Source: Mobula hypostoma
Lineage: Eukaryota
Assembly: GCF_963921235.1 (NCBI RefSeq)
Contig: NC_086108.1
Location: 69,132,001-69,196,000, forward strand
DNA: 64,000 bases
Reading direction: 5' to 3'
Shown here: one piece after another, positions 7,791 through 62,526 of the stretch
Layout of the letters: every line of letters starts with the position of its first letter
Numbering within the stretch: the first letter of the stretch is position 1
Notes under the pieces: generated by a model
Database searches by the model: none
What the model was told of the DNA's origin: nothing
The model's input: the letters and a program-made list of their open reading frames with translations, nothing else
Program-made: the position numbers and the translations under genes

Positions 7791-7884
7791 ATGTATACTC
7801 AGGAGGGCGGTTCTCTACAACTCAATTTTGGGAATCGTGGAGAATCGAAGTTGAGTAAAAATCAAACAGAAGTGAACAGAGCAG
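7791..7884 (+). CDS. Putative first coding exon of the EGF-TM gene (MYTQEGGSLQLNFGNRGESKLSKNQTEVNRA)
   Basis: ATG has A at -3, with an in-frame upstream stop. The frame is open to a phase-1 GTGAGA donor that matches the phase of the EGF exon. It contains an NQT sequon. No signal peptide is seen, so this exon could be UTR instead. Confidence 0.45.
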
Positions 7885-8299
7885 GTGAGAATTTTTCCTC
7901 ATTTTTTCTGTATAAAGAATTTTGCAATCCCTGAATAAAAGTTTGTTTATTCACAGATTTGTAAATAAAAGTCAATGTTAATTGCAAATTAACTTCATTT
8001 AACTATATAATTTTGATTACCCCTGTAACAGCTTTACAAATATTTAGCTGAATAATTTAGGTCTATTAAAAATTTAGTTTATTTGTTGTAAAATTTTTTG
8101 AATTAGCTGGATGAGATGGAGATTCAAGGGAGTATTTGGACTCTGCAATAAGATGTAAATCGGGTGTGTGAGTGAAACATGGCAATGGCTTGGGAAGTGT
8201 GAGAGTCACACATTTTAATAGAGGAAATCAAATGTCTATTAGTTAAATAGACAGAAAATGCAGATGAAGAGAGCTACGTAAAGTTATTATAGAAGTACC

Positions 8300-9482
8300 T
8301 ATATGTCACCACATATTACCTTGAGATTCATTTTCTTGCAGACATTTACAGGAAAATAGAGAAATACAACAGAATTTATGAAATTCTATTTATGAAAAAC
8401 TATAAATAACAAAGACTGACAAACAACCAATGTGTAAAAATAGGACAATTTCTGCAAATAATAATGAAAAAAGAAAATAAATAATAGTGAATTGTAGAGT
8501 CCTTGAAGGTGAATCAGACATTGTGGAGTCAGTTCAGCGCTGGAGTGAGTGAAGTTATCCATTCTGATTCAGGAAGCTGACGGTCGAAGGGTAATAACCT
8601 TTCCTGAACCTGTGGTATGGGACCTAAGGCTCCTGTACCTCCTGCTTGATAACAATGGGATGATGGGGGTCCTTGATGATAGATGCTGCTTTCTTGTGGT
8701 GCCACTCATTGAACTCAATAAGGGGAGGGTTTTGCATGCAATGGACAGGACTTTATGCACCACTTTTTGTAGACTTTTCTGTTCTTGGACACTGGTGTTT
8801 CCATCCCAGGCTGTGATGCAGCTAGTCAGGATGCTCTCTATTGTGCATCTGTAGAGGCTTGTCAAAGATGTCTGCTGAATCAATGCAAACTTCTCAGAAA
8901 GTAGAGGTCAAAGGCTGGGAATCCTGCGGCATGTAACTCACCTCCTGAGTCCCCAAAGCCTGTCCACCATCTACAAGGCTCAGGTTAGGAGTGAAATGGA
9001 ATACTTGCCACTCTCTTGGATGAGTGCAGCTCCATCAACACTCAAAAGGCTTGTCACCATCCAGTACAAGGCAGCCCACTTGATTGTACCCTTCCACAAG
9101 CATCCGATCCATCCACCATCGATTAAACAGTTGCAGCAGTGTGTACTATCTACAAGATGCACTGCAACAACACACCAAAGTTCCTAAGGCAGCACCTTCC
9201 AGACCCACGACCACTACCATCTACAAGAATGAGAACAACAGAAACCAGGAAACACCACCACTTGGAAATCACTTACCATACTGACTTGGAAACATATCGC
9301 TGTTCCTTCACTGTCACTGGGTCAAAACCATGGAATTCCCACCCTACAGCACTGTGGGGGTGTATCTACACCTCTGGGACTGCAGCGGTTCAAGAAGGCA
9401 GCTCATCACCATCTTCTCAAGGGCAATGAATGCTGGCTTAGCTGGCAATGGCCACATCCTGTAAGTGAATAAATAAAAAAAA
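8300..9482. mobile_element. Adjacent LINE remnants: Rex/L2-like on minus to ~8905, then L2/CR1-group 3' end on plus with an A-rich tail
   Basis: Minus ORF LYRCTIESILTSCITAW; plus ORF MEYLPLSWMSAAPSTLKRL; tail AATAAATAAAAAA. Confidence 0.65.
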
Positions 9483-9677
9483 AGGTGCTATCGTGCCTTC
9501 TTTGTGACAGATCCTCTGATATGGTAATGCCAAGGAACTTTAAAGCTTCTGATCCTCTCCACCTCCAATCCCCGAATGAGGACTGGCTTCCTGTCCTATG
9601 GCTTCTTCCTTCAGTAGTCAGTGACCAGCTCCTTGGTTTTGTTGACTTTGAGTTAAAGGGTGGTGTTATGGCACCAT

Positions 9678-10102
9678 CGGGGTGCAGTGGTAGCCAGAGC
9701 GCACCCAGCACATCTTTAAGAAAAAAGCCCAACTAAACAAGCTAATTAATTAGGTGCCGTCCAGGGTGATTTGAGTATCTCAGAAACTGCTGATCTCCTG
9801 GGATTTTTACGCATAACAGGCTCTGGAGTTTACAAAGAATGGTGCCAAAAACAAAATAAACATCCAGCAAGTGGATTTAACAAGATATTTTCATTCACAG
9901 AACAGCCACTCGCTAGATTTTTAAAAATTTTTGGCACCATTCTTTATAAACTCCAGAGTCTGTTGTGTGTAAAAATCCCAGGAGATCAGCAGTTTCTGAG
10001 ATACTCAATTCACCCTGGGCGGCACCTAATTAATTAGCTTGTTTAGTTCGGCTTTTATCTTAGAGATGTGCCCGGTGCGCTCCGGCTAGCACTGTACCCC
10101 TG
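9678..10102. mobile_element. hAT-like foldback MITE with ~173 bp inverted arms
   Basis: Arms at 9679-9851 and 9928-10100. Termini C(A)GGGGT..ACCCCTG. 8-bp TSD GGCACCAT at 9670-9677 and 10103-10110. Confidence 0.82.
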
Positions 10103-13100
10103 GGCACCATCCAATCAGATTTTAAGTCCTGATGAAGGGTCACAGCCTGAAACATCGACTGTTTATTCCTTTCCAGGGAGTGCTGCCTGACTTGCATTTT
10201 GAGTATATTACTCTGGATTTCCAGCATCTGCGGGATATCTTGTGTTTAAGATTTTCAATCTTCCTCCTATATTTTGATTCATCACCACCTTTGATTTGGT
10301 CAACAACAGTGGTGTCATCAGCAAACTTAAATATGGCTTGGACCTGTAGTTAGCCATAGCTATAAAAGTGAATGGAACAAGAGGCCTAGCACACATCTTG
10401 TGCTGATGGTAATTGTAAAGGAGATGTTGTTGCCAATCTGTACTGACTGAGGTCTACAAGTGAGGAAATCAATGATCCCTGGTGCACAGGGAGATATTGG
10501 CCTTTATTGCAAGAAAGGGATTAGAAATAGCAGAGGTACTGTTACACATCGTTGGTGAGGAGACACCTGGTGCACTCCCCTTACTTAAGAAAGAGAGCTC
10601 TACTGTTGGAAGTGGGCTAATTGAGGTTCCCAATGCTAATTCTTGTGATGTGTAGGTAGTCCTTTTATGGTCAACCAAAGAAATTAGATCTGAATTTTTT
10701 TGGGGGTAGAAAAATGAGGGTGATCTGATTAAAACAGGTTTCTGAAAGGGCATGACAGGACATATCTGGAGATGATCCTGCTAGTGGAAGAATCTCAAAG
10801 GAGAGGATGTGGTTACTAGATTCGAGGTAGTCATTTAAATCTGAAGAATGTATTTTCAGGGAAAATGATGGATCGCGAGACTTCCATACCACAGAGGGTT
10901 AAGGAAGCTAGATCACTGGGGGTATTTAAAGAGTAATACACTTTTTGAAAAGTCTGGAAATTAAGGACACAGAAAAAGACATGATGTCTGATACAGATTA
11001 GCTTTGATTGTATTGGATGCTGGGGCAGGTGTGAGGGGCCAAATGTGTTTTGTATTGATTTCCCAGCTACTGGCCTATTAGTCAGATTTAACTAGGCCCA
11101 ATTTCCTTGCCTTCCCTTCTGTCTTCAGACATGAGGAGTGTATTCCTACACCTGCCCAGATCTCTGATTGAATTTCATTTGCCAATCTCTCGTGGTTCAA
11201 TCCTTCAGAAAGTGTGTGCTTTCAGTTACGAGATATGTATTAGTTTTGGATTTTCTGGCTGCTGACCAAAATAAAGCAGAAGGTATTCAAATACATTCCT
11301 GTCCTGGAAGATATCATTGAGCTGGTATGTATTCAAATTCTTCAATGGGGAAAAAAACTCAGCTGAAAATCCAAAGCACTGTTATTTTTGTTGGCATTAT
11401 GAATTTGCAGAATTTGTATATATTATAATATAGTGTTTGTCATTGCTGTTTCTTCTACAAGTGCCATGGACGGTCCTGATTAGCTCCTGATGACAATTGT
11501 TGTAATTCACCTATCAATTGAAACTAATATTGAGCAGACCTTTCTTTCTGATTCTCGTTGTAAATGTTACTTTACATGCAAATTCTTAACCATTTGTAAA
11601 TTCAAGATGGCAATTCATTCCCTTACTATTGTTAGCATTACGGTTTACGCAGTTTGTGGTGTTTCCTTTATGACCTGCTGTTCAGTTATATTGTTGTGAT
11701 CCAATTGTCCAAGAAAAGTTAGATCTAGAAGGATCCAGTTTCTCATACCTATGCTGTCTCTCTACTACATTAATTTGCTAGCTTCAACCCCTTCTCACGT
11801 TGGCATGGCAACACTTGGAGGTTGCTCCAGGGCATACTCGATGCAAACAGCGCATTTCACAGTATGTTTCAATGTTTTGATGTGCTGTACATATATGTGA
11901 CAAATAAAACTAATCTTTAATTTCCATTATGCTATTCATTATTATTGTATCCAGAATCTCAACTATTTCAACTCACTCTTTCCCTGGTATATTAATAGTG
12001 GTCTCAGTGGTCATGTGCAAGTTTCCATTTTCCCCCCCACTGTCTTTTTACTATTTGTCTGCATGTAGAATATTTTTGTATTCCTATCAGATTTAATTAG
12101 AAACTAGAATAATAGGTTTGACTCTGAAGTGTGGACTAAATTTTAACATGCCTAGCTGTTAAGTCTGATTGCCACAGAGGTGTGACAAATGCTAATATTT
12201 TAAATATATCATTAACAAACATTTTTGGTTTTGCTTGCTATGTGTAGACAGATTCAAGTTTTGTATAATAATATTGGTGCTCTGCTGTTTTTTGGAGATA
12301 TACTAGCACTATAATACAATATAATAATTATATGAAATATAATAATTTAACTATAAAATTAAGTTTGCCTCTTAAGTTTTAATTGTGCCCTATGGCAAAA
12401 ACTCCACTACTTTCAGTTGAATCATTTTGTGTAATCTAAACTTTAAATGACAAATTCTAAACTCTAACCTACTGGATTTTTAAAAAGCTTAAAAGTGACA
12501 TTTGCGTGTTTCTTGGAAAATAGTTGTGAAATCGCAATGTAATCTGTAACTTCATCAAAACTTAGCTTTTCCCTGGAAAATTGAAATTGGCAGGCAGCTG
12601 CACATTAGATCTTTATGCTCACTGCTCTTACACCGATGAATCCATACTATTATTTTTGGGATGTGCTATGATAAACTTACAAATCAGTTGTAGATCATTG
12701 AATGAAAGGTTAATTGAACTTTAAAAATTTTACTGCACCAGAGGAGGCTACTCTTCCTTGTGAGTTTACCAGCTCATCATGGAGCAAAGCAGTTGGTCCT
12801 ATTTCCCCTGTCTTGCAGATTTTGTTTTATCTATAAATACTTACACAGTTTCCTTTTGTGACCTATAATTAACTTTTCATTTCCACACTGTAAATAGTGC
12901 AGGACTGCTCATTACTGCATAGAAGTGTTTTTTCACACATCATCCCTGATCTTTTCGCTAATTATGGATGCTTCACTAATGGAAACCACTTTCTCTCCAT
13001 TTATCTGATCAAGATATTCTACAGCTCTGCCAAAGCTTTTTTCAACCTTGAAGATACAGGAGATTGCAGATGCTGGAACCTCAAGCAAGAAAAAAAGAAG

Positions 13101-14423
13101 CTGGAGGATCCATTTGCTTAGGCAACACCTGTGGAGGGAAATGAACATTTGATGTTTCAGGTTGAGACCCTTCATCAGCAGTTCATTTTTGCTCCATGCA
13201 GTCTTCCAAATTTTCTGGGTTCCCTTTACAACTGAAACCCTTCATCTTCAGAATCATTTTAGTAAATCTCTTCCACGACAGTCTAGGAGTTCCAGATCCT
13301 CCCCATGTGCTTGGCCGTAATTATGTACTTAACCTGTGTTTTTAGCCTTGGTCAATATGTCCTCCCTCCATCTGAATTTGACATTGTGCTTTTTATCCTG
13401 CAACAAGTTACTTAATAAATGCAAACTGAGATGGCTACTGCTTCTGTAACTCTTGCACTGTATCACTCAAGCATCATTGGGAGCTTTGTAATAACTGTGT
13501 GTGTGTGGGCATCAAATAACCCGTTTAATAACAGCAGGGAAATGTACTCATCTGCAAATCCACTCTCAGAAATTAATAGTTTTTCAATTGCAATGTTTAT
13601 CAATGTGAGAAATAAATATAAATGATATTGTATTTCCTTCAAAACATTATTTGTTTTGATCAATCTGTGCAAGGATACTTGAGATCGTGTTAGCGACTGC
13701 TATAACACCCAGTCACAGAATAAGGTATTTCTCTCTTTTACATTTTGATTCCGATATACTTGCACAACCAACTACATTCCACAACTGTTTCAATGGCAGG
13801 TGCAGTAAGTTTGCTCACAACGTTATTTTATTGGCTGTGATAATGAACTTTTAAAAATTACAAATCTCAGATCGATTTTGATTTGGGATTTGTTGGTCTA
13901 AGTTGCATAAAACTAACCAGATTATTTTAATGGTCAGCACCATAAGCACTCAATGTTGATGTAAGAACACAAGGAAGCTAATTGAATCACAAGATCCTTG
14001 CATTAACCAGTACCCTTTTTGAAGTTGTCATTAACTCTGCTTTCTTCAATATTCCAAATAATGAATTCTGGATCAAAACCTTCCTCCCTTTCCCACACTC
14101 CTCAATTATATAAAAACAGAATCTTAAAAGTGAAAGCTGTTTCCCTCAGGAAATCAGATTTGTGTAAGGAATGGAAATGAACCCCTTACAAAGAAATATG
14201 TTTAGAAAGTGCTATTCACAACATCAGGAAATGCTGAAGTATGTTACAACCACATACTTATAATGCGATGCAGCATTATTATGTAGGAGACATAACTATC
14301 TATATGGACAGCAAGATCCAAAGATAGCAGTATGATAATAACCAGAGTATCTGTTCTATTCATCTTTGTACCTTTAACACTTACTTGAGGGAGCATTTGA
14401 ATAATCGCATCTCCAACAATATA

Positions 14424-14877
14424 CACTTAATGCCACTTTGTTAGGAAAACCTACACACTTCATTAATGCAAATATCTCAGTGCAGAAAAGCTTGCAGACA
14501 TGTTCAACTGATTCAGTTGTACAGATCAAACATCAGAATGAGGAAGAAATGTGCCTGAAATGACTTTGATGGAGGAATAATGTTGGTGCCAGATGGGGTA
14601 GTTTGAGTATCTCAGAAAATGCTGATCCCCTGGGATTTTCATGCACAACAGTCTGCAGAGCAGGGGTTAGGTTTGGCAGGGAATGGCCTGACCCATTCAA
14701 GCTGGCAGGGTCTCAAATAACCATGTGTTACAACAGTGGTGTGCAGAAGAGCATCACTGAATGCACAACATTTCAAATATTGAAGTGGACGGGCTACAGC
14801 AGCAGGAGATCACAAACTTGCACACTGTGGCTACCTTATGAGTTATAGGAGGTACCTAATAAAGTGACCACTGAGTG
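14424..14877 (+). mobile_element. Non-autonomous Tc1/mariner element
   Basis: TA then CACTTAATGCCACTTTGTTAGG at the left; CCTAATAAAGTGACCACTGAGTG at the right. Internal remnant of the transposase N-terminus (SISENADPLGFS..YNSGVQKSITE). Confidence 0.8.
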
Positions 14878-15349
14878 TGTTTCTTCACGTTGCACTGGAA
14901 TATCAAATGGATTTTGTTTTGTTTGGCTCAGACGTCTGAAGTGGATTGTCATGGTAGGACCATTACAAATATAAAAACTTTCAGTATAGTTCCGTTTGCC
15001 TGCTGTTTTTCAGCAATGGTACTTTTATCTTAAATGATTTATGCAGAAAAATCCAAACTGACAGTGCAATGCAATACTGATGGAGCAATGTATTAAGATG
15101 AAGCTTGATCTACTCTGTGGAGAGGGTACTCACTGGCTCGTAATATGCTTTGGCAGGTTTTGATTCCATAGACAGTACCATCTAAATCCCACATTGTTTT
15201 TAAGCTGCCATTCTCTTAAACAGAGAGAATAGTTAAATTTTTAAAGAATTGACAAAGAAGTTGGATTTCTTCAATGAAATTTAGAAGGGATATACTTTTC
15301 TGGTGTAATTTTCAGGCTATATGGATATACAGTGGATATGCCTTATCTA

Positions 15350-15612
15350 TATAACCATATAGCAATTACAGCACAGAAACAGGCCATCTCCGCCCTTCCA
15401 GTCCATTCCGAACTCTTACTCTCACCTAGTCCCACTGACCTGCATTCAGCCCATAACCCTCCATTCCTTTCCTGTCCATATATCTATCCAATTTAACTTT
15501 AAATGACAACATCGAACCTGCTTCATCCACTTCTGCCGGAAGCTCGTTCCACACAGCTACCACTCTCTGAGTAAAGAAGTTCCCTCTCATGTTACCCCTA
15601 AACTTTTGCCCC
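15350..15612 (-). mobile_element. CR1 3' end fragment
   Basis: Reverse complement of a CR1 terminal region (AACTTCTTTACTCAGAGAGTGG) and tail. Confidence 0.7.
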
Positions 15613-15844
15613 TAGTGGTGGAAGAGCAGAAGAACTAAAGCATTCAGTGTTGATTAGATGTTTGAGATTAGATACAAGCTATAGGATAGTAAACTTTGTC
15701 ATCTTTAATTTTATGATGAGCTTTTCTGACCATATATAAACTTGATCATGGCAGCTTATTTATGTCACCAGTTGTATTGCCATTCTGGTCTTGATTTTTG
15801 TTGCTTCAGGACTTCATTAGACAATTGTCTAGTTACAGATTTCA

Positions 15845-16120
15845 TGGCACATTAGGGCAATTAGTAGAACTGCTGCCTCACAGTGCCAGAGACATGAGTT
15901 CAATCCTGACCCAGAGTGCTGTTGAGTTTGCATGTTCTCTCTGTAACTTTGTGAGTTTCCTCCAACAGGGGTGTTCAGATTGATGAATTATTTGGCCACA
16001 GTAAGTTGCCCCTGAGTTTAGGTGAGTAGTAGAATTGTGAGGAGAATTTTTTTTAAATGTGATTATTGTAAAGTAAGTGGTTGATGGCCAACACAGGCTT
16101 CCCATACTGTTATCTCTGTG
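15845..16120 (+). mobile_element. V-SINE/HE1-like SINE, degenerate
   Basis: GCTGCCTCACAGTGCCAGAGAC..GTTCAATCCTGAC..GAGTTTGCATGTTCTC, a V-domain-like motif. Confidence 0.7.
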
Positions 16121-17149
16121 ACTTCCCATGATCAACTCTGGATTAACTTCAATTTTGCCCATTTCCTAACATGTACATTTGAAGGAGGAAAAGAAGATTG
16201 GAGATCTTTTATTCAATCCTTATAACCTAAAGCAAAGTCCACTTAAAATCTGAAAGAAAGGTTCTTCCAGTAAGATGGTGGCAGGCTTGGATATAATGGC
16301 CTCTCTGGAGCCAGCCAAAGGTGTTTTCGATTTTTTTTTCAAACACCTTTTTTTTTATCATCACAAGACAATGCTGAACTTTAAGAACTTCAAGTGCTGC
16401 AGGTCTACCTCACCAGTGAGTTGTTTGTTGATGGAGAAGCTGGAAATGGTGTGGACTGTGTTGCTACCTGCGACAGAAAGGAGTCAGGGTGAGAAGGCTG
16501 GGTGCTGTCTAAGAGCAAGTGATTGTCTTGGACCTTTTTCGTGTGATCGCAAGGTCCTGTTAGACATTGGTAAGGTAAAATACTGCAAGTGCAGTTCATT
16601 GGTTTATTGACAAGGCCAGTGGGGGCGGGGGGGAGCTGTGTGGCCTCGGTTGTAGTGAGGAGCAGGCCTCGTGGCACACAACTGCCTGGTGCAGCACCCC
16701 AGGAAGTGAGGTGCTGGTGTCGGGGTAGCGCAGCGTCCACACTGGACTCGGAGGACTGGCCCTTCCCATTCCTGCTGCCTTCCAATGTTTGACAAGCTGG
16801 ATTGTGTACATTTGTCTGCAGACTACTGGCAGCTGCTTGTTTGTGCCAACAACACCCGTTCACCATCAGATTACAGGGCATGTCACTCAGATACTTGGGC
16901 TATATTGTTTTTTGTGTGACTGTACGCTTACTGCTATCTTACAGGTACTATATGTGCCCTGTGCTGTTTATGACTGTTGGTACTGTGTTTGCACCTTGGC
17001 CGCATAGGAACATGGACTTGTTCAGCTGTATTCATGGGTATTCATGTACGGTTGAATATCAATTAAATGAACAAAGTTGTTAAAGATTTGGGTTGGAGAT
17101 GGGATCCAGGGTCTTTGAACCCAAAATCTCTCCAACACCTTTCTCAATC

Positions 17150-18510: not shown

Positions 18511-18623
18511 GATCTCAAAATCCTTCCAGAAACCTGCCTCTGTTACAACATATCCAATTTTATTAATGATGAGCAACACACACATAATGCTGGAGTAACT
18601 CAGCAGGCCAAACAGCATCTATG

Positions 18624-19493
18624 CAGACATTCCACCCTGCAAAAACTCATTTCAGGGAGGTAGCACCATCAATTTGCGGGAGACCTCCGGGAGAGGTGGG
18701 ATGTCTGCAATGGAGTAGCTCCTTAGCAGCTGGCCAGCTAGTTTAAATAACATTAGCTATGCTAATGAACGAATGACACCTGTTAAACTCACCTCAACAC
18801 ATCTTTTACAGACTTCACCCACCATGGGCGATAGAAAAGTCACCGTTGCAAACAGTGCAGTGAGCAACACTGTCATTATTTTGACCCCTATTACGCAAGG
18901 GTACACTTTAGTGTAGTCTGGGGTGACGTACGTTTCATTTTTTTTGGAACACTCTGTCATGGCGCGCGCACGCGCGCTCTCTCTCTCTCTCGTGGTCGCT
19001 CGCGCGCTCTCGCTTCCTTTCTCGCTCTCTCTCGCGCGCGCGCTCTCTCTTCCTTTCTCGCTCTCTCTCGCTCGCGCGCTCTCGCTTCCTTTCTCGCTCT
19101 CTCTCGCTCGCGCGCTCGCTTCCTTTCTCGCTCTCTCTCGCGCGCGCTCTCGCTTCCTTTCTCGCTCTCTCTCGCTCGCGCGCTCTCGCTTCCTTTCTCG
19201 CTCTCTCTCGCTCGCGCGCTCTCGCTTCCTTTCTCGCTCTCTCTCGCTCGCGCGCTCTCTCTTCCTTTCTCGCTCTCTCTCGCGCGCGCGCTCTCTTCCT
19301 TTTTCGCTCTCTCTCGCTCGCGCGCTCTCTCTTCCTTTCTCGCTCTCTCTCTCGCGCGCGCTCTCTCTTGCTTTCTCTCGCTCGGTCTCAAAAAAATTGA
19401 TTTCCGTGATATTGTATATAATTTGCGGGCATCAGGGAGCCACTATTAATATGCGGGAGATTCCCGGAACTTCCAGGAGAGGTGGGATGTCTG
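18624..19493. mobile_element. Non-autonomous DNA transposon (P- or hAT-like) with internal minisatellite
   Basis: TIRs CAGACATTCCACC and GGTGGGATGTCTG; 7-bp TSD ATCTATG at 18617-18623 and 19494-19500. Confidence 0.8.
18962..19385. repeat. CT/CG-rich minisatellite (~34-36 bp unit CTCTCGCTTCCTTTCTCGCTCTCTCTCGCTCGCGCG)
   Basis: Directly visible tandem array of about 11 units. Confidence 0.9.
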
Positions 19494-20359: not shown

Positions 20360-20500
20360 TAATTAAGGAGAAACTTAGCTGTGGCGTCGTACCTTGTCTG
20401 AACCATGGCAAATGCACTGCATATCCATTTAGTAGACTTGGATTCCTGTGTATTTGCCCTCCTGGATTTTATGGAGATCTTTGTCAACATCGCTCAGCAG
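20360..20500 (+). CDS. EGF-like domain exon (VIKEKLSCGVVPCLNHGKCTAYPFSRLGFLCICPPGFYGDLCQHRSA)
   Basis: TTGTTTCAG acceptor and GTAAGA donor; 141 bp, phase 1-1. Six Cys in the canonical C-x4-C-x-N-x-G-x-C...C-x-C-x2-GF-x-G-x2-C pattern. Confidence 0.92.
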
Positions 20501-30985: not shown

Positions 30986-31082
30986 AGCCATTTACCGTTA
31001 TTTCACTTATTGGAGTCATTGCGATACCAATTCTCATCCTTGCTTTGTGCTTTGCCATCTGCTGCATTTGCAACAGGGAAAG
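30986..31082 (+). CDS. Transmembrane exon (EPFTVISLIGVIAIPILILALCFAICCICNRE)
   Basis: TATTTTGCAG acceptor and AAG|GTACGA donor; phase 1-2. About 23 hydrophobic residues, then a Cys cluster and basic residues. In phase with the EGF exon. Confidence 0.88.
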
Positions 31083-31849
31083 GTACGAGATAATTCCCAG
31101 TATTGTAAATTTTGTGCTATGTGAATCACTGGAAATGTATATGGGATGAATAATATTCTCATTGTCAACCCTCCAGATTGCACCATCAAGCTTTCAAAAA
31201 AAACTTTAAGATTTGTTTAAATCCATCACCAGCTACTTGTAAATCAAAGTCTCCACGATTTCCCTGTCCACGGACACGAACTCCTTGTCCACGGACTAGC
31301 ACATATCAGGTAGGGAATACAAGAAATATTTCCTTAGATGTATAAGAAATATTTTAAATTACTTTTAATGTAGAAATATCCGTTATCATTTATATTCATT
31401 GACCTTGGAAAAAGAAAATGCAGTATTAATTTCCCGGAGACCTGGTGTTTTGCCATTTGTGTCATGGTTTTATTAGTTGCAATTTGAGTCTGTGTGCCAA
31501 TAGAAATGTATAAATCATTTTTGTTAGTGCTGTAGTATCATTGACCACAATGTGATTTTCTTAGTATCCATTGGAATTCATTAGCTCTTTTTAAAAAAAA
31601 ATTGAAATCCAAATTAATTTTATATATTAAAAATAGAGATCTGATCTGGTCTTTAATTTCTGGAGCATAAAACTTACTTCAGGTTAACCTAAATGGGTAA
31701 GGTTGATGAACAGAGCATGGATCAGCACGTGGAATTATAACACTGTGGCTAATTGGCCATTAGTGAGACTTGGGGCTTCTTAACCAGGGCCTTGTATCCC
31801 TTGAAAACCAAAGTCCCTCAACATGTTTGCCTTGCCTTTTATTCTGACA

Positions 31850-34041: not shown

Positions 34042-34129
34042 ATTCAGACTTCAAAATGTTTTGCATATTAATAATAATGACCTCAAGCCCATCATTTACC
34101 AGACCAATTATTACCACATCTCCACCCCA
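34042..34129 (+). CDS. Candidate juxtamembrane cytoplasmic exon (RFRLQNVLHINNNDLKPIIYQTNYYHISTP)
   Basis: TTTCTTCAG acceptor. Its phase 2-0 exactly bridges the TM exon and the 39862 exon. The donor CCA|GTAACT is weak; an alternative GC donor (GCAAGT) lies at 34176. Confidence 0.55.
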
Positions 34130-39861: not shown

Positions 39862-39970
39862 GAAAGCTGTAAAAGAAGAGACAATACAAATCCATTTGAA
39901 CCTGAAAATGCTGACTTTCTTCGATGCGGCACAAGAAATGACCCACGTCAATACAATCCTGAATTGACTG
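39862..39970 (+). CDS. Cytoplasmic exon (ESCKRRDNTNPFEPENADFLRCGTRNDPRQYNPELT)
   Basis: ATTTTATAG acceptor and CTG|GTATGT donor. Only the phase 0-1 frame is open throughout. Confidence 0.7.
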
Positions 39971-43946: not shown

Positions 43947-44024
43947 CCACACCAAGCTCTGTTGCAACTTTTCAACGGACTAATAAAGTAGAAAGAAGCG
44001 CTGGAAGCCATGGCCCATGCCCAG
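43947..44024 (+). CDS. Repeat exon 1 (ATPSSVATFQRTNKVERSAGSHGPCP)
   Basis: Pyrimidine-rich acceptor TTTCTTCAACAG and CCAG|GTACTC donor; 78 bp, phase 1-1, ends in PCP. Confidence 0.75.
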
Positions 44025-48319: not shown

Positions 48320-48397
48320 AAATTCAACCAAGTATTGCTCCAGAGGAAAATCAAAGAAAATCTTCATCACACAGCATAAGCCAAAGTCCATGCCCAG
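48320..48397 (+). CDS. Repeat exon 2 (EIQPSIAPEENQRKSSSHSISQSPCP)
   Basis: CTCTTTTAG acceptor and CCAG|GTAATC donor; 78 bp, phase 1-1. Confidence 0.78.
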
Positions 48398-48800: not shown

Positions 48801-48887
48801 CAGTGAAGCAACACTCTGCTGCCTGTCAGACTGATCCAGAAGCCATAGATCAAAAATCACACATCGGAAGCAAAAGTCCATGTCCAG
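48801..48887 (+). CDS. Repeat exon 3 (AVKQHSAACQTDPEAIDQKSHIGSKSPCP)
   Basis: TTTATGCAG acceptor (NAGNAG) and CCAG|GTACTG donor; 87 bp, phase 1-1. Confidence 0.8.
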
Positions 48888-51800: not shown

Positions 51801-52000
51801 TAAAATGGTATAAATGTCCATAATTTGCATTTTCTTCTGGGGGGTCTTGGGGTAAACAATTGGAAAACCTAAGGCCAATCAGCATTCATCTGTGCTCATT
51901 TAAAACTGAAAATGATTGTCATAATTACTGGAAAATAAAATATATATTTGATTAAATGACAGCAGAATGCACGAATGATGTAGCTTTATTATTTATGCAG

Positions 52001-52096
52001 CTGTGGAACAAAGCTCCGTTCATTGTCAGACTGACTCTGAAGCTGTTGATCAAGAAATATCCACATCTCATATCAGAAGCAAAAGTCCATGTCCAG
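52001..52096 (+). CDS. Repeat exon 4 (AVEQSSVHCQTDSEAVDQEISTSHIRSKSPCP)
   Basis: TTTATGCAG acceptor and CCAG|GTATTG donor; 96 bp, phase 1-1. Paralogous to repeat exon 3. Confidence 0.8.
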
Positions 52097-52289
52097 GTAT
52101 TGATCCCACCTAGTACTGTACATATTTAATGCATTGTATATCATTAGGTACAGAAGTTTTTAAAGCTTTTCTAACTGGCAAAATAGCAGTATAAATTGAA
52201 TCAAAATCAGGTATATCATATATCACTGACATATGTCATGAAATGAGTTGTTTTGCAATACATCATAATAAAAACTAAATTACTGCAAG

Positions 52290-52302
52290 TGTGTGTGTAT
52301 AT

Positions 52303-52354
<52 letters not shown>
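52290..52354. repeat. (GT)/(CA)n microsatellite
   Basis: Directly visible. Confidence 0.9.
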
Positions 52355-52356
<2 letters not shown>

Positions 52357-53304
52357 ACTGTAATTTACAATTTACATGGCTTCATTGTCCATTCAGAAAT
52401 CTGAAGATGGTGGGGAAGAAGCTGTCCTGAAATGTTGAGAGTGTATCTTCGAGCTCCTGTACCAGCTCCGTGACGGTAATGATGGGAAGGGGACCTGTCC
52501 TGGGTGATGGGGTTCCTTAATGATTGATGCCACCGTTTTAAGGCATCACCTTCTGAAGCTGTCCTGGATGCTGGGAAGGCTAGTGCCATGATGGAGCTGG
52601 CTGAGTTTACAATTTTCTACGGCTCTGTTCTACGGTGATGCAACCAGTTAGAAGGCTCTCCACACTACATCTGTACAAATTTGCGAGTGTATTTGGTGAC
52701 ATACCAAGTCCTCTCAAATCCCTAATGAAATATAACTGTTGTCGTACTTCCTTTGTGATTGTATCAGCATGTTGGGCCCAGGACAGATTTTCAGAGACGT
52801 TGACACCCAGGAACTTGAAGATGCTCACCCTTTCCACTGCTGATCCCTCGATGACGACCAGCGTGTGTTCCCTTGACTTCCCCTTCCTTATGTCATTTCC
52901 CTGGTCTTAGTGATGTTGAGTGCAAGGTTGCCGTTGTGACACCAGTTAACCAGCTGATCTATCTCACTCCATATCACCTCCTCATCACCATCTGAAATCC
53001 TACAAACAATGGTTGTGTCGTCAGCAAACTTATAGATGCCGTTTGAGCTACGCCTAGTCACGCAGTCATGGGTGTAGAGAAAGTAGAGCAGTGGGCTCAG
53101 CCTGAGGCGCTCCAGTGTTGATTTCAGCAAGGAGGAGATGTTATTTCTGATCCACACTGCCTGTGGTCTCCTGGTAAAGAAGTCAAGGATCCAATTGCAG
53201 ATGCAGGTACAGGGGCCAAAGCTTTGGAGCTTGTTGTTTTGAACTGAGTGTATGATTGTGTTAAACACTGAGCTGTAATCAATGTCCAGGTGATCCAAGG
53301 TCAA

Positions 53305-53877
53305 GTGAGACCACACCTGGAGTATTGTGTGCAGTTTTGGTCCCCTAATCTGAGGAAAGACATCCTTGCCATACAGGGAGTACAAAGGAGGTTCACCAGA
53401 TTGATTCCTGGGACGGCAGGACTTTCATATAATGAAAGCCTGGATGAACTGGGCTTGTACTCGTTGGAATTTAGAAGATTGAGGGGGGATCTGATTGAAA
53501 CGTATAAAATCCTAAAGGGATTGGACAAGCTAGATGCAGGAAGATTGTTCCCGATGTTGGGGAAGTCCAGAATGAGGGGTCACCGTTTGAGGATAAGGGG
53601 GAAGCCTTTTAGGACTGAGATTAGGAAAAACTTCTTCACACAGAGAGTGGTGAATCTGTGGAATTCTCTGCCGCAGGAAACAGTTAAGGCCAGTTCATTG
53701 GCTATATTTAAGAGGGAGTTAGATATGGCCCTTGTGGCTACGGGGATCAGGGGGTATGGAGGGAAGGCTGGTGCAGGGTTCTGAGTTGGATGATCAGCCA
53801 TGATCACAATAAATGGCGGTGCAGGCTCAAAGGGCCGAATGGCCTACTCCTGCACCTATTTTCTATGTTTCTATTTC
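53305..53877 (+). mobile_element. Young 5'-truncated CR1 nested in the Rex-like LINE
   Basis: Uninterrupted ORF2 C-terminus (VRPHLEYCVQFWSP..KNFFTQRVVNLWNSLP) and a TTTCTATG tail; flanked by AAGTG. Confidence 0.88.
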
Positions 53878-56800
53878 TAAGTGGAGAGCCAATGAGGTTG
53901 CATTCGGTGTAGACCCATTGTGGCGATAGACAAATTGCAGTGATCCAGTTCCTTGCTTAGGCAGGAGATGATTCTAGTCATAAGCAATCTCTCAAAGCAT
54001 TTCATTACAGACGTGAGTGCCACTGGGCGATAGTCATCGAGGCAGTTCACCCAGCTCCTCTTGGGCACTGGTATGATTATTGCCCTTTTGAAGCGGGTGA
54101 AAAACTCCAAATGCAGCAGTCAGAGATTGAAGATGCCCTTGAACACACTTGTCAGTTGGTTGGTACAGGTTTGCAGAGACAGAGATCATAGCATCACCAG
54201 ATTCTGTCATGATTCACACAAGCGTAGTTTTATTCTCCCTTTCAAAGTGTGCCTAAAAGGCATTGAGCTCATCTGAGAGTGAAGCATCACAATCATTCAT
54301 AACGTTAGGTTTTTCTTTGTGGGAAGTAGTGATCTGCAAACCCTGTTAGAGCTGATGTGCATCAGATTCCTCTCGCCTCAATTGGATATTTTGCTCTTAA
54401 AATAGCCTTCCATTGGTCATACCTGGATGACTTGTATAGTTCTGGATCACTGGTCTTGAATGTCACAGATCCAGCCTTCAGCAGACTAGGAATCTCTTGG
54501 TTCATCCATGGCTTTTGGTTTGTGTATGGACTGTATGTTCTTGAAGGCACACATTCACCCACACAGGTCTTAATGAAGTTGGTAACAACTATTACGTATT
54601 CATTCAGATTCAAGGATGAATCCCTGAATATTGTCCAGTCCACCGACTCAAAGCAGTCCTCTGCCTCCCTTGACCATACCTTCTTGGTCACCACTGATGC
54701 TTTGATCTTTAGTCTCTGCCTATATGCTGGGAGTAGAAGTAGAGCCAGGTGAATGGACCTTCCAAAGTGTTGGTGTGTGATGGCACAGTAAGCATTCTTG
54801 ACTATTCTGATAACAGTGGTCAGGTGTGTAGGCTCACTCCTCTGGTTCCACAGGTGATATGTTGGTGGTAGTTGTTCAGAGTCTTCAAACTGGCCTGGTT
54901 GACATCCCCCACAATGATAGGGAAGGCATCGGGATGTGCTGTTTCATCCCTCTCATTAGGATGCTCAACTCCTCCAGTGCCTGCCTGACGTTGGCTTGAA
55001 GTAGAATGTACATCACTACCAGGACAATAGTGGAAAAATCTTTCAGCAAATAAAAAGATGACATTTGACCACTAGATGTTCCAGGTCGGGTAAGCAAGTC
55101 TGAGACAGAACCATCATGTCTGTGTGCCATAATGAGTTAATCATAAATCATACACTATTTTCTCTACCTTTATAAGACCGAACTATCCTTTCTTTGTGGA
55201 GAAAGGTAAAGCCATTGGGCTACAATACCTTGGCTGAAATGGTGGGTGATAGCCATGTTTCCAAGAAGCAAAGTTCACAGCAGTCCCTCTGGTACAGCAA
55301 TCTTGCTCTGAGGTCTTTAATTTTATTTTCCAGAGACTGTAAATTCACTAGCAGAATAATTGGGAGTGGGCATCACAGGTCCTGATGTCAAGGCATTTTG
55401 GTAAAATCATGCACGTTGTTTATTTCTGGGTTTTTTTTTGGCCAATATAATAGTGTATGTAGTTGCATTTATTGAATACCCTGTAGTGCAATTGGGTAAA
55501 GCAACGAGAAGAATATTTCTGTCCGTATTGTCTGATTGTGGAATACATATTCACAGAAAGTTGAGTTTGTATACTTTTAACTGTCATAACGTGTAAATGG
55601 ACAGCAAATCTGAGCTTCACTTGATATCTTTGTGCATGGTCGAGATTATGTAATGAAATTGTTTAACAGAGCAGTTCAGCTGGCACTAAGCAGACCTAAA
55701 CAACAAAACATCTACAGGTGTTCGAAGATGGTCCAATGTATCAGTGGAACATTTATAAGGCCTAAATTGTCCAAACCCAAGCATGAGATGACTGCACTTT
55801 CTTAAAGCTTGGTTTGTTCCATCTAAAAGGTTATTTAGAAATGTTTATGATTCCATAGCTTCAAATACAAAGTTCTTATGATTTTTGTAAAATGGAATTT
55901 AGTGACAAGAGTGTATTCATCTGAATTTCAACCACTAGTATAAAATTAACAAACCTTTGGACAAAGTCAGTTATGAATTAACTTTTGAAAATTTACACCT
56001 TGAAACTTATTGAAACCACTTTCATCTTCATTTATTTTGTTGCTCTTAGCAACACATTCTATTTAAGTATGAGGGTGTACCCAGAAAGAGTGAAGATTTC
56101 AACTGACATGCTCGCATTTATTTTATTAACACTGCTTTTATGAATTAAATTCAAACTTTGTCCGGATATTTTTTTTTGACCTGTTTGTCAGGGCATTTCA
56201 GACCCATTACTTTCCCCAAAAAAGATTCGCAATGGAAATATTATTGGGACACGTTTATAGCTGTTAGGGAAATAAAACCAGTGCAAATAAAGGGTACATG
56301 GTACATAATCATGAAAATGATAACAAAGTACAATAAGAAGAAATGTTAAAAAATTGAAAAGTATTTTCCTGAAAATGCATTCATATCGAACTATTGGTCC
56401 CTAATACCATAAACTGCATTTCATTTTGATGAAAAGAATAGTATGCATTTACAAGTTTGTGAATTTCTAAATATTACTGCCAGGATACTGATAAAATAAT
56501 CTAGCAAAATTTGTGTTTATTTCAGGTGGCAGTTCCTTAAAGCACAAAAGTTGAGTTTATTGTCATATGCACATGTATGCATAAGTGCAATGAAAAACTT
56601 CCTTGCAACAGCATCTCAGGTTTATATCATTACATAAGCAACATTCACAGGAAATAAAAATTAATTAACAATTAACAACATTAAAAAGAACAATTGGAAC
56701 ATTTTAATGCAAACTGATCAAAGTGTTCCTGATTGTGCTAAACTCTAGTGATTAGGGTTGTGTTGGATGGTTCAAGAACTGAATGGTTGAAGGGAAGTTG

Positions 56801-58361
56801 AACCTAGTGGATTGGGACTTCAGGCTATTGTACTTCCTGCCTGATGGTAGCAGAAAGAAGACGGCATGGCCTGGATGGTAGGGATCTTTGATAGACGATG
56901 AAGGATATTTCACTCAAATGTACTGTTATACCAGTGAAACCAACCAAGGTATTGTACACACAATTACCTTATCAGTCTAGCTATATAACTCAAATCAGAT
57001 ATCATTTTTCCCTTTCTGATCTGACAGGGCAGTCTGACAAGCACAAGAAAACCTGCAGATGCGGGAAATCCACACAACACTTCCTAATAAATATTTCAAT
57101 TATAAAGGTACTCACTGAGAATCTTGTTGAGTCACATTGAGAGCACATTGACAGATTAGAGCCTGAAGTGTCGGCAGTTGGAGTAAAACATGAAAAATTG
57201 CTTTAAAAAAGGAAGCATTCTTCTAAATGAGATTTCATTGAGCTTTCAGAAGCAAATTGGTCCCTAAACACATTGTATGAATTTATTATGTTTTCCAGAC
57301 AAATTTGGCTAGGAGAATGAGTGATGGTTGAGGCTTGTTTTTCAGATTGGAGACCTGTGCCATAGGGATCTATGCTCGGTATATTTTTGTTCATCATTTG
57401 TATTAAGGATTGATGAGAGAGTGGATGGCATGGTTAGTAAGTTAATGGGTGATACTAAAATTGGTGGTAGTGAAGAAGGTAATCTGAGATTCAATGGGAT
57501 CTTGATCAACTCAGCCAACGGACTAAGGAGTGGCTGATGGAGTTTATTCCACATGTATATGCATAGCTGCATTTTGGCAAGACAGGCCAGGCCAGGACCT
57601 GCAGGGTAAACAATAGGGATTTAAGAAAGTGGATTTAAGATAGACCTAGGATGCAGGTTGATAGTTTCTTGAAAAAAAGCAGCACAATATAGGGTAGAAA
57701 AGAAGGCTTTTAGCACACTTGCTTTCATTGGTCTGGATATTAATTATGGGAGTTGCTACATCATATTATGGAATGCAAGATGCCTGCAATGCCACATTTA
57801 GAGTACTGCGTGCAGTTCTGATCACCCAAATGCCAAAAGAAGGATACCATTAAACTTGAACGAGCACCAAGAAGATTTTTAAGTGCATGTTACTGGGGTT
57901 TGAGACAAGCTCAGGTATGCAGATTAATCAGCACAGATGAGTTGAACTAAAGGACTTGTTTCTGTGCGGTACAGCTCAATGAGTTAAACATTTAAACTTG
58001 GCAAATTCATATTCCTCTCTATATGTTGTCATCTAAAAGCAATATAATATTCCAGTAAACTTCATGATTACAACATGCAAGAACTATGAACCCATGTCAT
58101 TCTCCTCTGGAAATACATGGAATACCTTCTGAAATGCATAGGATATTCAAAATGTACATTAATCTGGTATAATTGTACGTAATTTGCTTTTCTTCCTAGA
58201 AGTCTGGGTATAACAGTGAGAAAATCTAAGCTCAGTTAGCATTTGTCTTTGCCGATTTAAAACTGACAATGATTATCTTAATCACTATAAAGTAAAATAT
58301 ATATTTATTTGATTTAAATAAAGCAGAATGCTCAAATGATGTAATTGTACTATTTATGCAG

Positions 58362-58457
58362 CAGTGAAGCAACGCTCTGTTAAAAGTCAGACTGATCCGG
58401 AAGATGTAGATCGAAAATTATCTCTATCACACGTCAGAAGCAAAAGTCCATGTCCAG
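58362..58457 (+). CDS. Repeat exon 5 (AVKQRSVKSQTDPEDVDRKLSLSHVRSKSPCP)
   Basis: TTTATGCAG acceptor (NAGNAG) and CCAG|GTACTG donor; 96 bp, phase 1-1. Paralogous to repeat exons 3 and 4. Confidence 0.8.
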
Positions 58458-60215
58458 GTACTGATCCTACCTTGTACATATTTCACACATTGCAGTTTAT
58501 GTCTTTGTATGCTTTTGTAATTGACATAAAATAGCAAATTATAATTTGACCAATTATAAAATTGTATGGCTCTAATGAATGCAAGTATACAGAGCACAAC
58601 AAGAACAGGCAGCAAGGCATTTTGGTAAATTAGTCCACAATACTTATTTCTGTTCTTGTTTCACCAATATGATTATGTATATGGTTGTCTTTATTGAATA
58701 ACCTATATGCAATTGGGTAAAGCAATGAGAAGAGATTTTCTCTACGTATTGTGTGATTATGAATTACACAGTCACAGTGCACAGAAATACTTTTAAGAAA
58801 CCCGTCACAATAGCCTATAAACCAGCAGCAAACCTGAGCTTCACTTGATTTTGTTGCACACCGCTGAGACTGTCATTGTTTAATGGAACAATTCATCCAG
58901 CATTAAACAAACATACAGACCCAATCAACAAAGGATCTACTGTGTTCAACAATGGCCTAGAGTGTTAATGAAAGGTTTGTGATGTTCAAATTGATGAAAC
59001 CCAACTATATTCTGGATGATTGCACTTTCTTAAAATGGGCAGCTTCTTAATAACTTCTATTTAAAAGGTTATTTAGAGATTATTATAGTTCCATAGTTTT
59101 GAATACAAAGTCACTATGATTTTAATAAAAATAGGAATTAATAAGAATATATTAAAATCACTTTAAGCCACAAGTTCAAAATGACCAAACCTTTGGACAA
59201 AAACAGTTTTAAACTAAATTTTGAAAATTAACAGAGTCACCTTGTTGTAATGTTTCATCTTTTGATTTATTTACTTGCCTTTATCAACACTTCCCATATA
59301 AATGTTTAAAAAAAGGGTTTAATTGAGGTAATATGCTTTCATTTATGAAATGATTGCTGCTTTTTAATGAATTGAACTCAAAACTTTGTCCAGTTGTTTT
59401 CTCTTGACCTGCTGGACAGGGAATTGTTTTTCCATTACTTTCTCCGAAGAGGATTCACACTGGGAATATTATTGGGTCACACTTATAACTACTGGGGAAA
59501 TTAGGTCAATGCAAAGCACAGGACACAGAATCATGCAAATGAAAGAAGGAAAGCACAATATGATAAAAACAAAGCAAAAAGAAGGGATGTTAACAAATTG
59601 TATAACATTCTCCTGAAATTACATCCATATCATACCATAACACCATAAAAATGCATTTCATTTGGTGAGAAGATTATGCATGTGCAAGTGTATGAACATC
59701 TGAATGTTGCTACCAAGACTTCAGTAAAATAGTCTAGCAAAAATTGCCCTTATTTCAGGTGGAGGATACTTAAACCCTGAAAGAAAAAGGAGCACTATAC
59801 CTGACGAAGGGTCTTGGCCTGAAACATCGACTGTTCTCTTTTCCATAGATGCCGCCTGGCCTGCTGAGTTCCTCCAGCATTTTGTGTGTGTTGCTTGGAT
59901 TTTCAGCATCTGCAGATTTTTCTCTCATTTCAGATTAAAGATTAGTTTTATTTGTCACATATTCATCGAAACAAGTAGAAAATGCATCATTTGCATCGCA
60001 TCAAATCAAATCAATGAAGTTTGCGCTGGGCAGCTGCAGGTGTCACCACACTTTTAGCACCAATATAGTGTGCCCAGAACTCATTACCCCTAACCTGTAT
60101 GTCCTTGGATTGTGGTAGGGGACCGGAGAGCCCGGAGGAAACCCTCGCGGTCACAGTGAGAACATACAAACTCATTACAGACAGTGGTGGAAATCAAACC
60201 CTGATCTTATTGATA

Positions 60216-60433: not shown

Positions 60434-60844
60434 ACGATCTTACTGATGGCACTGTAATAACATTCTGCTAATCAGTGTGCCACTGTGCCACAGATGGTAT
60501 TGTCACATATATAAGAATATGTACGCATTGGTGCAATGGAAAAACTTCCTCCTTGCAGCAACATCATAGAAACAGTGTCATTAGAGAGGCTTTTGCAAGA
60601 AAAACATACTCTGTATATCAAACATAACATGTAAGGACAAAAATAGAACAAAATAAAAGCGAAGTCCATCGTGTGCTGAGTCATCATGTCCTGTTATATT
60701 AGGGTAATGGATCAGGTTGTGCATTGTACAACAACAGCACAAATGAGGAAAGTAAATGACGTGTATGTCTATTTATGATGTCACGTGATCGGCAACAATG
60801 AATATATCAACTCAGGATTTATAAACAAACAAGCATTTATTAAA

Positions 60845-61032
60845 GCAACATACATCAAAGTTGCTGGTGAACGCAGCAGGCCTGACGAAGGGTCAGACTT
60901 AGTCCTGACGAAGGGTCTCGGCCTGAAACGTCGACTGCGCCTCTTCCTATAGATGCTGCCTGGCCTGCTGCGTTCACCAGCAACTTTGATGTATGTTGCT
61001 TGAATTTCCAGCATCTGCAGAATTCCTGTTGT
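60845..61032 (+). mobile_element. Penelope-derived short element inserted in the solo LTR
   Basis: 14-bp TSD AAGCATTTATTAAA at 60831-60844 and 61033-61046; perfect ~38 bp inverted repeat around the hammerhead. Confidence 0.85.
60901..60936 (+). ncRNA. Minimal type I hammerhead ribozyme
   Basis: AGUC-CUGACGA-AGG(GUCUCGG)CCU-GAAAC-GUC-GACU. The catalytic core is intact, stem I is AGUC/GACU, stem II is AGG/CCU, stem III is the palindrome ACGU, and the cleavage triplet is GUC. Confidence 0.85.
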
Positions 61033-61864
61033 AAGCATTTATTAAACCCTGATAAACAATGAAAAAAACAATGAAAACCCTAACCGGAAGTAAACTGCTA
61101 TGCGGCCATTCATTAAACCGCTACTCAGTACTAGCTCTTAAAGCGATAAATGCGAAACTAGTTCTTAAAGCGATACATTCAAACACAGTTCTTCGAATGG
61201 TAAATTTTAAAGTCCAAGAGATTTATATAGTCAATTAGGAGAGACTTTTATGAAGTAACGAATTCCTCAAAGACATGACGTCACTGCCACTCCCAGTCGG
61301 ATCCTGCCTTGTCCATAGAATTCACGACGACGGAAATAAAACGGTTTTAAAGGCACTGACCTTCCTCCTTCGTAGAATAGATCCTGCACAGCCTTTTCTA
61401 CCACTTTTAGCAGAGGCTATCTCATGCAGATCACTCTTTCTTGAACAAATTCAATAATGGTCAATCCTTTCCAAACCCGTCGAAAGTCTCCTTCAGGGTC
61501 CCGTCTTCACTCTCCAATGTTACTGAAAAGATACATTAACACACCTGGCAGCAATTGTCAAACTGCCGGCCCAGTACTTCTGTACCTTACAATAGAACAT
61601 AAAACTCTGTTTAAAATCAAAACTGCGTCATAATGCAAATACACAGCGGAGCGGAGTAGCTCATTGATGTTCTAACTGGAAAACTAACTGCGTCACCAGA
61701 GGTCTTCCCTCTTATACCCGTGGTGAACATGTCATCACATGACCTCAGATCAGTGGGAAAATTACATCAGGTGACCTCCAAAAGACCACTACATCATTCT
61801 CACAAGAAAGTCACAAGATCTCCATGAGATATGTAACAATGACACCTAGCAATTCATTATTATT

Positions 61865-62353
61865 CACATAGTGGCACTTTCTGTGTCTTGTGTTCTGCTG
61901 CTGTAGCCCATCCACTTCAGGGTTTGAAGTATTGTGTGTTTAGAGATGCTCTTCTGCACACCACTGCAGTAACACATGGTTATTTGAGTTACTGTTGCCT
62001 TCCTGTCCTCTTGAACCAGTCTGGCCATTGTCCTCTGATCTCTCTGATTAACAAGGTGTTTTGCCCACAGAACAGTCACTCACTGTATTTTTGTTCTTTT
62101 GTTTTTAGCACCATTCTTTGTAAGCTCCAGAGAGTGTTGTGCATGAAAATCCCAGGAGATCAGTAGTTTCTGAAATACTCAAACCACCCTGTCATTCCAC
62201 AGTCAAAGTCACTTAGATCACATTTCTCCCCCATTCTGATGTTTGGTCTGACCAGCAACTGAACCTCTTGGCCATGTCTGCGTGCTTTTATGCATTGAGT
62301 TGCTGCCGCATGATTGGCTGATCAGGTGTACCATATAAAGTGGTCACTGAGTG
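61865..62353 (-). mobile_element. Non-autonomous Tc1/mariner element, same family as 14424-14877
   Basis: Right TIR ..TAAAGTGGTCACTGAGTG followed by TA; ORF RTMARLVQEDRKATVTQIT..GVQKSIS. Confidence 0.8.
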
Positions 62354-62469
62354 TATATGTACACCTATACCTGACACATGTATGCTGATATGAAAGGTGT
62401 GTGTTCAGATACAAGTATAGAGTTCATAATCACAGATCAAAGGAAGTTAAGTTTGTATTTGACTCACAG

Positions 62470-62526
62470 CTGAAAGTAATCACATCTATAATGGTCATAG
62501 GAGCAACAAAGTCCAAGCTGCATTTG
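62470..62526 (+). CDS. Candidate further exon (AESNHIYNGHRSNKVQAAF)
   Basis: TTTGACTCACAG acceptor and TTG|GTATGT donor; 57 bp, open in phase 1-1. No stop codon, so the gene likely continues beyond the window. Confidence 0.45.

Follow-up and report, generated by a model that had tools for sequence, protein, structure and literature searches.

What kind of gene occupies the stretch of 64,000 nucleotides (nt) of Mobula hypostoma at positions 69,132,001 to 69,196,000 of contig NC_086108.1 (assembly GCF_963921235.1)? An original prediction, made from the letters alone, placed there a hidden, unrecognised and EGF receptor-like gene of eleven exons. This whole stretch is referred to below as the window, and its numbering is used unless megabase or contig positions are given. 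The gene, named here gene A, corresponds to RefSeq LOC134354888; that it is real is practically beyond doubt, and it was annotated already, with neither a name nor a study as far as the literature search reached. It has a tandem paralogue, LOC134355195 (gene B). What is new here is a corrected start of the Mobula model and a probable tie to C1orf185, a mammalian testis gene, with loss of the ectodomain. The favoured explanation, to which a probability of roughly 0.45 is given, is that the family of gene A is linked to C1orf185 and has a role in germ cells.

A query with the EGF exon returned three proteins out of four candidates: Mobula LOC134354888 (100% identity) and two isoforms of the skate LOC129700943 (62%). 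In RefSeq the Mobula gene has eight isoforms of 716-760 amino acids (aa), named uncharacterised, and orthologues are present for several rays and sharks under the same label (LOC129700943 in Leucoraja, LOC116977805 in Amblyraja, LOC119964595 in Scyliorhinus). The gene was, therefore, neither hidden nor unrecognised, and the clear match that emerged is itself an uncharacterised gene. A literature search for six locus identifiers, whose reach ended short of paper supplements, found no paper naming them. When one RefSeq isoform is mapped on the window and the 200 kb that follow it, 19 exons result. Nine of these (exons 11-19, at 65692-103620 of the extended numbering) lie past the window and reach 40 kb further, so that the predicted extent of about 55 kb, ending at 62526, was too short. 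The frame that uses 7791-7884 as exon 1 encodes 781 aa with a single stop at its end, and is identical to XP_062920394 from residue 11 onward.

The predicted chain was correct in part. GT-AG sites are found at the four junctions that had been specified (7884/20360, 20500/30986, 31082/34042 and 34129/39862), and the rebuilt chain, with exons 6-11 located anew, gives 340 aa without a stop; the true protein has 781. Nine of the eleven exons hold: eight are identical, residue for residue, to XP_062920394, and the ninth is 7791-7884. The former exon 4 (34042..34129, plus strand) is a chance pseudo-exon that reaches a best E of 3.0 against 17 gene A proteins, and the former exon 11 (62470..62526, plus strand) has no match among the same 17; neither occurs in any of the eight Mobula isoforms, as judged by eye. 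By simple rules, 16 open candidate exons of the same phase can be drawn from 31083-39861. Phase chaining alone is thus weak evidence, and 34042-34129 is what chance offers. The tyrosine motifs disappear from the protein with these two exons, since the tyrosine-rich exon is one of them. The NPF motif is present in one of the six aligned orthologues having exon 5, that of Mobula itself, and the YxxPhi motifs of gene A are not conserved either. Conservation is lacking for the tyrosine and NPF motifs alike, which leaves a receptor-like scaffold unsupported, and Pfam detects only the EGF: no L domains, furin-like domains or kinase. Support remains for a single-pass protein, so far uncharacterised, that has one transmembrane (TM) segment and an ectodomain of small size.

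The start of gene A deserves separate consideration. RefSeq's Mobula models lack 7791-7884 and begin instead at 19451..19481 (plus strand), an exon of 10 codons with a weak donor (GTGGGA) and no orthologue match. The repeat that contains it has 1387 candidate copies, and all 40 of those scored match. This repeat-derived exon is probably a minor or false start. A CG-rich tandem array lies beside that repeat (18996-19377; 36-nt unit, 10.8 copies, 93% matches). Exon 1 as proposed here (7791..7884, plus strand) encodes Met1 to Ala31 without a signal peptide and ends at the donor CAG/GTGAGA. In a search of 41 kb, three skate orthologues align with it through their residues 1-31, from the Met to the splice site (42-45% identity, E 1e-6 to 1e-4), and the NQT sequon of exon 1 is kept in four of six orthologues checked. 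Directly before exon 1 lies a CpG island (7391..7790) whose observed/expected CpG ratio is 0.92 (regional median 0.23); it occurs once in the genome and contains a cAMP response element-like (CRE-like) TTACGTCA at 7626. Comparable ratios precede gene B (0.93) and the RING gene further downstream (0.91). The island is likely to be the promoter and 5′ end of gene A. Given the skate match from Met to donor and the single-copy island, as opposed to a RefSeq exon in a high-copy repeat, a start at 7791 is preferred as highly probable.

A real transcript might, on the other hand, contain an upstream signal-peptide exon, and gene A would then be of the ordinary type I, as is gene B. This would agree with the hydrophobic stretch that opens the paralogue, coelacanth and lamprey proteins (clear in six of six, compared with none of seven gene A proteins checked), with shark models that begin 19 residues later than ray models, and with six out-of-frame ATGs in 7645-7781. 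Among the 15 joints listed after reads from 4 of 14 runs were aligned to 7600-27500 at 85% likeness, a setting too loose and swamped by repeats, 7884/20360 does not appear (3388 more were unlisted). The presence of an in-frame stop three codons 5′ of the ATG, the Met position kept in three skates and the single-copy CpG island directly there argue against such an exon. Furthermore, a profile of the paralogue N-terminus finds nothing on the plus strand between the INK4 gene and the EGF exon (63.9 kb), while it recovers the exons of gene B at E 1e-31 to 2e-8. A separate scan for signal-peptide first exons found none; it also missed the first exon of gene B and is therefore uninformative. Finally, two skate contigs of 2903 and 2839 nt contain the entire 893-aa frame from the same Met, and would derive from spliced RNA provided that the skate gene extends over as long a stretch as that of Mobula. 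An upstream exon is consequently considered highly improbable. Four read runs contain 66-98% of the last-exon words, and the RNA origin of these runs is a guess.

Exon 2 (20360..20500, plus strand, phase 1-1) encodes one EGF domain with six cysteines, recognised by Pfam PF00008 at 28.1 bits (cut-off 21.5; E 2.5e-6). Its cysteine spacing, 4-5-11-1-8, recurs in 17 of 17 family domains. Exon 3 (30986..31082, plus strand, phase 1-2) encodes the only strongly hydrophobic segment, a helix of 27 residues with cysteines (CCIC) at its end, a split Arg codon and basic residues next. Only 6-7 residues separate the EGF from the membrane. The charge is 0 to -2 before the segment and +2 to +6 after it in six of six proteins. 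From the lack of a cleavable signal, the single TM segment and the positive charge that follows it, gene A is predicted to be a candidate type III (reverse signal-anchor) protein. Identity to the skate and to Heterodontus is 62 and 62% in the EGF exon, 85 and 70% in the TM exon, 22 and 16% in the repeat region, and 64 and 59% in the last exon. The gene A model of Rhinoraja has no TM region and those of Narcine have no intact EGF, which may be model errors or real losses.

Membrane-proximal EGF domains with one TM segment are also found in CRB3, DNER, TMEFF and NRG4, the last of which likewise has no signal peptide. Gene A has no Crumbs tail, EGF array, follistatin domains or ErbB-ligand signature, and these genes are at other loci. 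ErbB ligands carry an Arg before the sixth cysteine, split their EGF over two exons and possess a sheddable stalk. Gene A could be read as the signal-peptide-less precursor of a shed growth factor of the NRG4 or ErbB-ligand type, in agreement with its short N-terminus, EGF and TM segment and with NRG4 being the nearest ESM Atlas cluster of the paralogue ectodomain (0.78, a lead only). In none of the 17 family EGFs does an Arg precede the sixth cysteine; together with the constant spacing, the one-exon EGF and the very short stalk, this makes a growth factor extremely improbable, and a single phase 1-1 Notch-type exon distinct from ErbB ligands, as the original prediction held, is confirmed. 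The same applies to the distinction from CRB3. Crumbs proteins, CRB3 included, have a signal peptide and a 37-aa tail ending in ERLI, whereas gene A has no signal peptide and a 690-aa tail that ends in TDSETEA.

A different possibility keeps the link with C1orf185 and makes gene A somatic: a palmitoylated EGF-TM protein for adhesion or trafficking in epithelia or neurons, like CRB3, DNER or TMEFF. The Notch-type EGF, matched best in the PDB by EGFs of Notch and Delta, and the CpG-island promoter are compatible with this, and eight RefSeq isoforms imply transcripts in whichever tissues were sequenced. The O-fucose consensus, present in 7 of the 17 family EGFs (four of four shark gene A domains, coelacanth and two lamprey domains), points in the same direction; it is, however, gone in all four ray gene A rows, including Mobula. 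In addition, a CRB-type tail and conserved NPF and YxxPhi motifs are missing, and the fast drift of the tail follows the pattern established for reproductive genes. A somatic role is thus doubtful.

The tail includes thirteen exons that are all of phase 1-1 with lengths in multiples of three, placed after two exons of other phases. Exon 4 (31177..31309, plus strand, phase 2-0), which the predicted chain had missed, follows a 94-nt intron and matches orthologues at E 3e-9 to 6e-7; exon 5 (39862..39970, plus strand, phase 0-1) contains the NPF. Then come, all on the plus strand, exon 6 (43947..44024), the first symmetric repeat exon; exon 7 (48320..48397), with an SPCP end; exon 8 (48801..48887), whose NAGNAG acceptor produces a one-residue isoform, and exon 9 (52001..52096), both within duplicated blocks; and exon 10 (58362..58457), the last true exon inside the window. 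Three recent repeat exons derive from duplicated blocks of 0.4-1.2 kb and are 77-85% alike, with intron flanks at 77-86%. Since the duplicated exons are kept no better than their introns, the tail reads as a spacer rather than as a motif-bearing scaffold, and the PCP ending that repeat exons have in common may be partly forced by the donor site. Expansion by exon duplication, as proposed, did take place; the receptor or scaffold signalling motifs attributed to the tail found no support. Around exons 8-10 (48560-59774) the duplicated blocks run several kb into the introns at 68-74% identity. In the skate, residues about 510-630 form an extra array of 10-residue Cys-Pro repeats that is not in Mobula.

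Gene A is not alone. Searched against the full library, the skate protein had 50 matches, nine at E 1e-30 or better, which included ray and shark orthologues and also gene B. The latter (plus strand, 69248443-69299823 of the contig) lies 13 kb downstream in the same orientation and has a signal-like start, a probable beta-sandwich of 100 aa, an EGF, a TM segment and a shorter tail. The RefSeq Mobula model of gene B (272 aa) ends early, and the Hypanus protein is matched (80-86%) by two additional exons. Its N-domain belongs to no Pfam family. The ESM Atlas leads for this domain are all of the FN3 clan (0.76-0.79, leads only), structure comparison gave a best VIA Z of 5.3 to mixed beta-sandwiches (root mean square deviation 3.4, 88 aligned), and Foldseek gave no E below 0.001; the two AlphaFold models of gene B are of low confidence (mean predicted local distance difference test, pLDDT, 41 and 46). 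A Pfam RHEX match on gene B (E 0.002-0.008) is below the cut-off. Both genes have common exon phases from the EGF to the last exon, and the intron after the TM exon is at the same place (94 nt in gene A, 97 nt in gene B), the TM exon of gene A being three codons shorter. In the tree, genes A and B fall on opposite sides of a branch (92/96) with sharks and rays in both, which indicates that they split before sharks and rays did; the tree left out the Narcine and Rhinoraja A proteins and partial A proteins, and its midpoint root and the places of coelacanth, lamprey and outgroup are unreliable because of long branches. Pristiophorus models fuse the first part of gene A with gene B, forming two EGF-TM units, either by read-through or by annotation fusion. 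Since they join the two, adjacency of A and B in sharks is suggested.

The family extends further. Coelacanth LOC102366583 has a B-type N-domain (by alignment), a spacer of 730 aa and then the EGF-TM unit (HHalign 99%); 25 residues ahead of the EGF stands an RHKR site that conforms to the furin cleavage consensus. The tail of this protein is found by the tail profiles of genes A and B (27.1 and 8.9 bits, 0 of 300 shuffles), and a short last-exon motif is common to gene A, gene B and coelacanth. Gene B and the coelacanth protein are thus like gene A in EGF spacing, exon phases and tail motif; unlike it, they have the signal-like start and the beta-sandwich of 100 aa, and no counterpart of its repeat exons. 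The lamprey proteins have the EGF-TM in common and tails that do not match. The proposal that the protein is lineage-specific is accordingly valid for the gene A copy only: the family extends to coelacanth, probably to mammals and perhaps to lampreys.

The probable connection with mammals starts from the locus. On the contig the order is: a FAF1 domain (68.76-68.78 Mb, minus strand), an INK4-type ankyrin gene, gene A, gene B, a RING-H2 gene and a TTC39-family gene. The ankyrin gene (69.085-69.088 Mb, plus strand, two exons) is of the CDKN2C type, its exon 2 matching p18INK4c (1ihb) end to end at E 4e-35 and scoring above p19INK4d, while short ankyrin pieces searched against PDB gave mainly DARPins. 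The RING-H2 gene (from 69.328 Mb, plus strand, three exons) we take to be RNF11, and the TTC39-family gene (69.396-69.430 Mb, minus strand) is presumably TTC39A. With these names, genes A and B occupy the interval of C1orf185 between CDKN2C and RNF11, inside the FAF1...TTC39A block. The last-exon motif and intron phases of C1orf185 may also resemble those of the gene A/B family.

The human order is CDKN2C, C1orf185, RNF11 (PMC4263743), and FAF1 is linked to CDKN2C (PMC11555623). C1orf185 (4930522H14Rik in mouse, DUF4718) has five exons and 199 aa and is testis-specific (PMC8750304), its level rises to day 28 in mouse testis, in late spermatids (PMC4502369), and it is present in bull sperm (PMC10629479). 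Mouse codons 14-19 and 35-40 (12 residues) could be fixed from two guide sequences and the deletion c.41-117 (PMC8750304). In a preset register, anchored at the split Arg that ends the TM exon, the mouse exon being presumed to end at that Arg, these residues align without gaps to the coelacanth TM segment (5/12 identical; score 20, reached in 0 of 5000 shuffles; negative for all eight shifts) and match three of four gene B rows (10-50 of 5000 shuffles), as against 619 of 5000 for the control CRB2. C1orf185 also has its TM segment near the start of exon 2 and, like gene B, three exons after the TM exon. Unlike gene A, with its EGF and 690-aa tail, the mouse protein has only 13 residues before the TM segment, and hence no EGF.

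Several observations weigh against this relationship or against the germ-cell role. The two gene A TM rows fail the register test (870 and 1167 of 5000), as does lamprey (464/5000); the match of Mobula gene B is weak (228/5000), and the comparison consists of 12 residues and one unrelated control. Pfam PF15842 (DUF4718) had no match among 18 proteins and 11 fragments, nor in the genome, where the search was made without a positive control. Three of four direct tail tests between A and B were not significant and one was marginal. A word-limited profile search found no EGF-bearing member in ray-finned fish or tetrapods among 35 matches from 7999 scored candidates, the rest being multi-EGF proteins. 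PMC11555623 states, as unpublished data, that the linkage of C1orf185 with Cdkn2c is not conserved across vertebrates, and PMC8750304 describes the mouse knockout as fertile. Matches listed for H1orf185 in the literature concern mammals only; searches on elasmobranch sperm EGF proteins and on signal-less EGF topology found none, and those on EGF/FN3/coelacanth proteins and on skate testis nothing relevant.

Genes A and B could then be an unrelated EGF-TM family that is in this interval by chance, with a separate origin for C1orf185, a reading to which the missing DUF4718 match, the failed gene A register and the lack of intermediates would lead. It does not easily account for the exact place between the same two neighbours, where a search of three intergenic intervals for another TM exon (both controls recovered) gave three candidates, none with the basic split-Arg end, nor for the coelacanth and gene B segments that match C1orf185 in register. 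Chance placement is therefore regarded as improbable. Membership of gene A in the same family as C1orf185 appears quite probable. Its own TM exon fails the test, so that gene B and coelacanth are the only ties between gene A and C1orf185; in the absence of a DUF4718 match, gene A is to be called a probable distant relative rather than a family member.

Going beyond what was read directly from the gene structure, orthologues, family homology, paralogue, neighbours and relaxed repeats, a mechanism may be proposed. An old vertebrate gene between CDKN2C and RNF11 would have given rise to two tandem copies in elasmobranchs, gene A being one of them. Mammals would keep this old gene, without ectodomain, as the testis-specific C1orf185. 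The TM helix would act as a reverse signal anchor that places the first 78 residues outside, and the single EGF, held 6-7 residues above the membrane, would serve as a fixed contact surface and not as a shed ligand. Inside, the cysteines at the helix end may be palmitoylated, the approximately 350 residues of symmetric, freely drifting exons may form a disordered spacer of variable length, and the conserved last exon may bind a partner. The result would be a membrane-to-cytoskeleton tether or adhesion molecule of late spermatids or sperm, and not a signalling receptor. The chances of a germ-cell role seem evenly balanced; the tether, as stated, is tentative and somewhat unlikely in this exact form. 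It is also conceivable, if doubtful, that an old vertebrate protein of the sperm surface, with signal peptide, beta-sandwich, EGF and TM, persists as a stump in C1orf185, and that the working unit of this old protein was the membrane-held EGF. Because RHKR precedes the coelacanth EGF, a short N-terminus followed by EGF and TM would be common to the processed coelacanth form, the lamprey protein and gene A: made directly in lampreys, released by furin in coelacanth and encoded outright by gene A. In sharks and rays, genes A and B might then act in sperm-egg or sperm-oviduct contact, and loss of the ectodomain in mammals would explain the fertile mouse knockout.

Other elements were noticed nearby. 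The window contains self-complementary elements resembling miniature inverted-repeat transposable elements (MITEs; 6431-6601, 9679-10100, 34451-34767 and 60839-61005), a MITE-like inverted pair of 299 nt at 95% identity (42176-42474 and 42779-43077), and broken retroelement-like frames, seen by eye in the open reading frame list (57-1856, 17370-18093, 21287-23326 and 52888-54943). No tRNA or Rfam match was found within it. Further on, a minisatellite of about 1.2 kb (unit of about 38 nt) between gene B and the RING gene mimics a CpG island, and an intact frame of 937 aa (254889-257699 of the extended numbering, plus strand) has, by eye, the look of a long terminal repeat (LTR) retrotransposon gag.

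C1orf185 is a human azoospermia candidate with a fertile mouse knockout, and has been treated as an orphan without paralogue or conserved linkage. The analysis also corrects the Mobula model in its first exon. Should the link proposed here fail, gene A would be one more uncharacterised EGF-TM gene, of an ordinary kind and listed in RefSeq beforehand. If the link is true, the ancestry of C1orf185 could be followed back to early jawed vertebrates, with an EGF ectodomain since lost, and its function could be tested in the intact forms of sharks and coelacanth.

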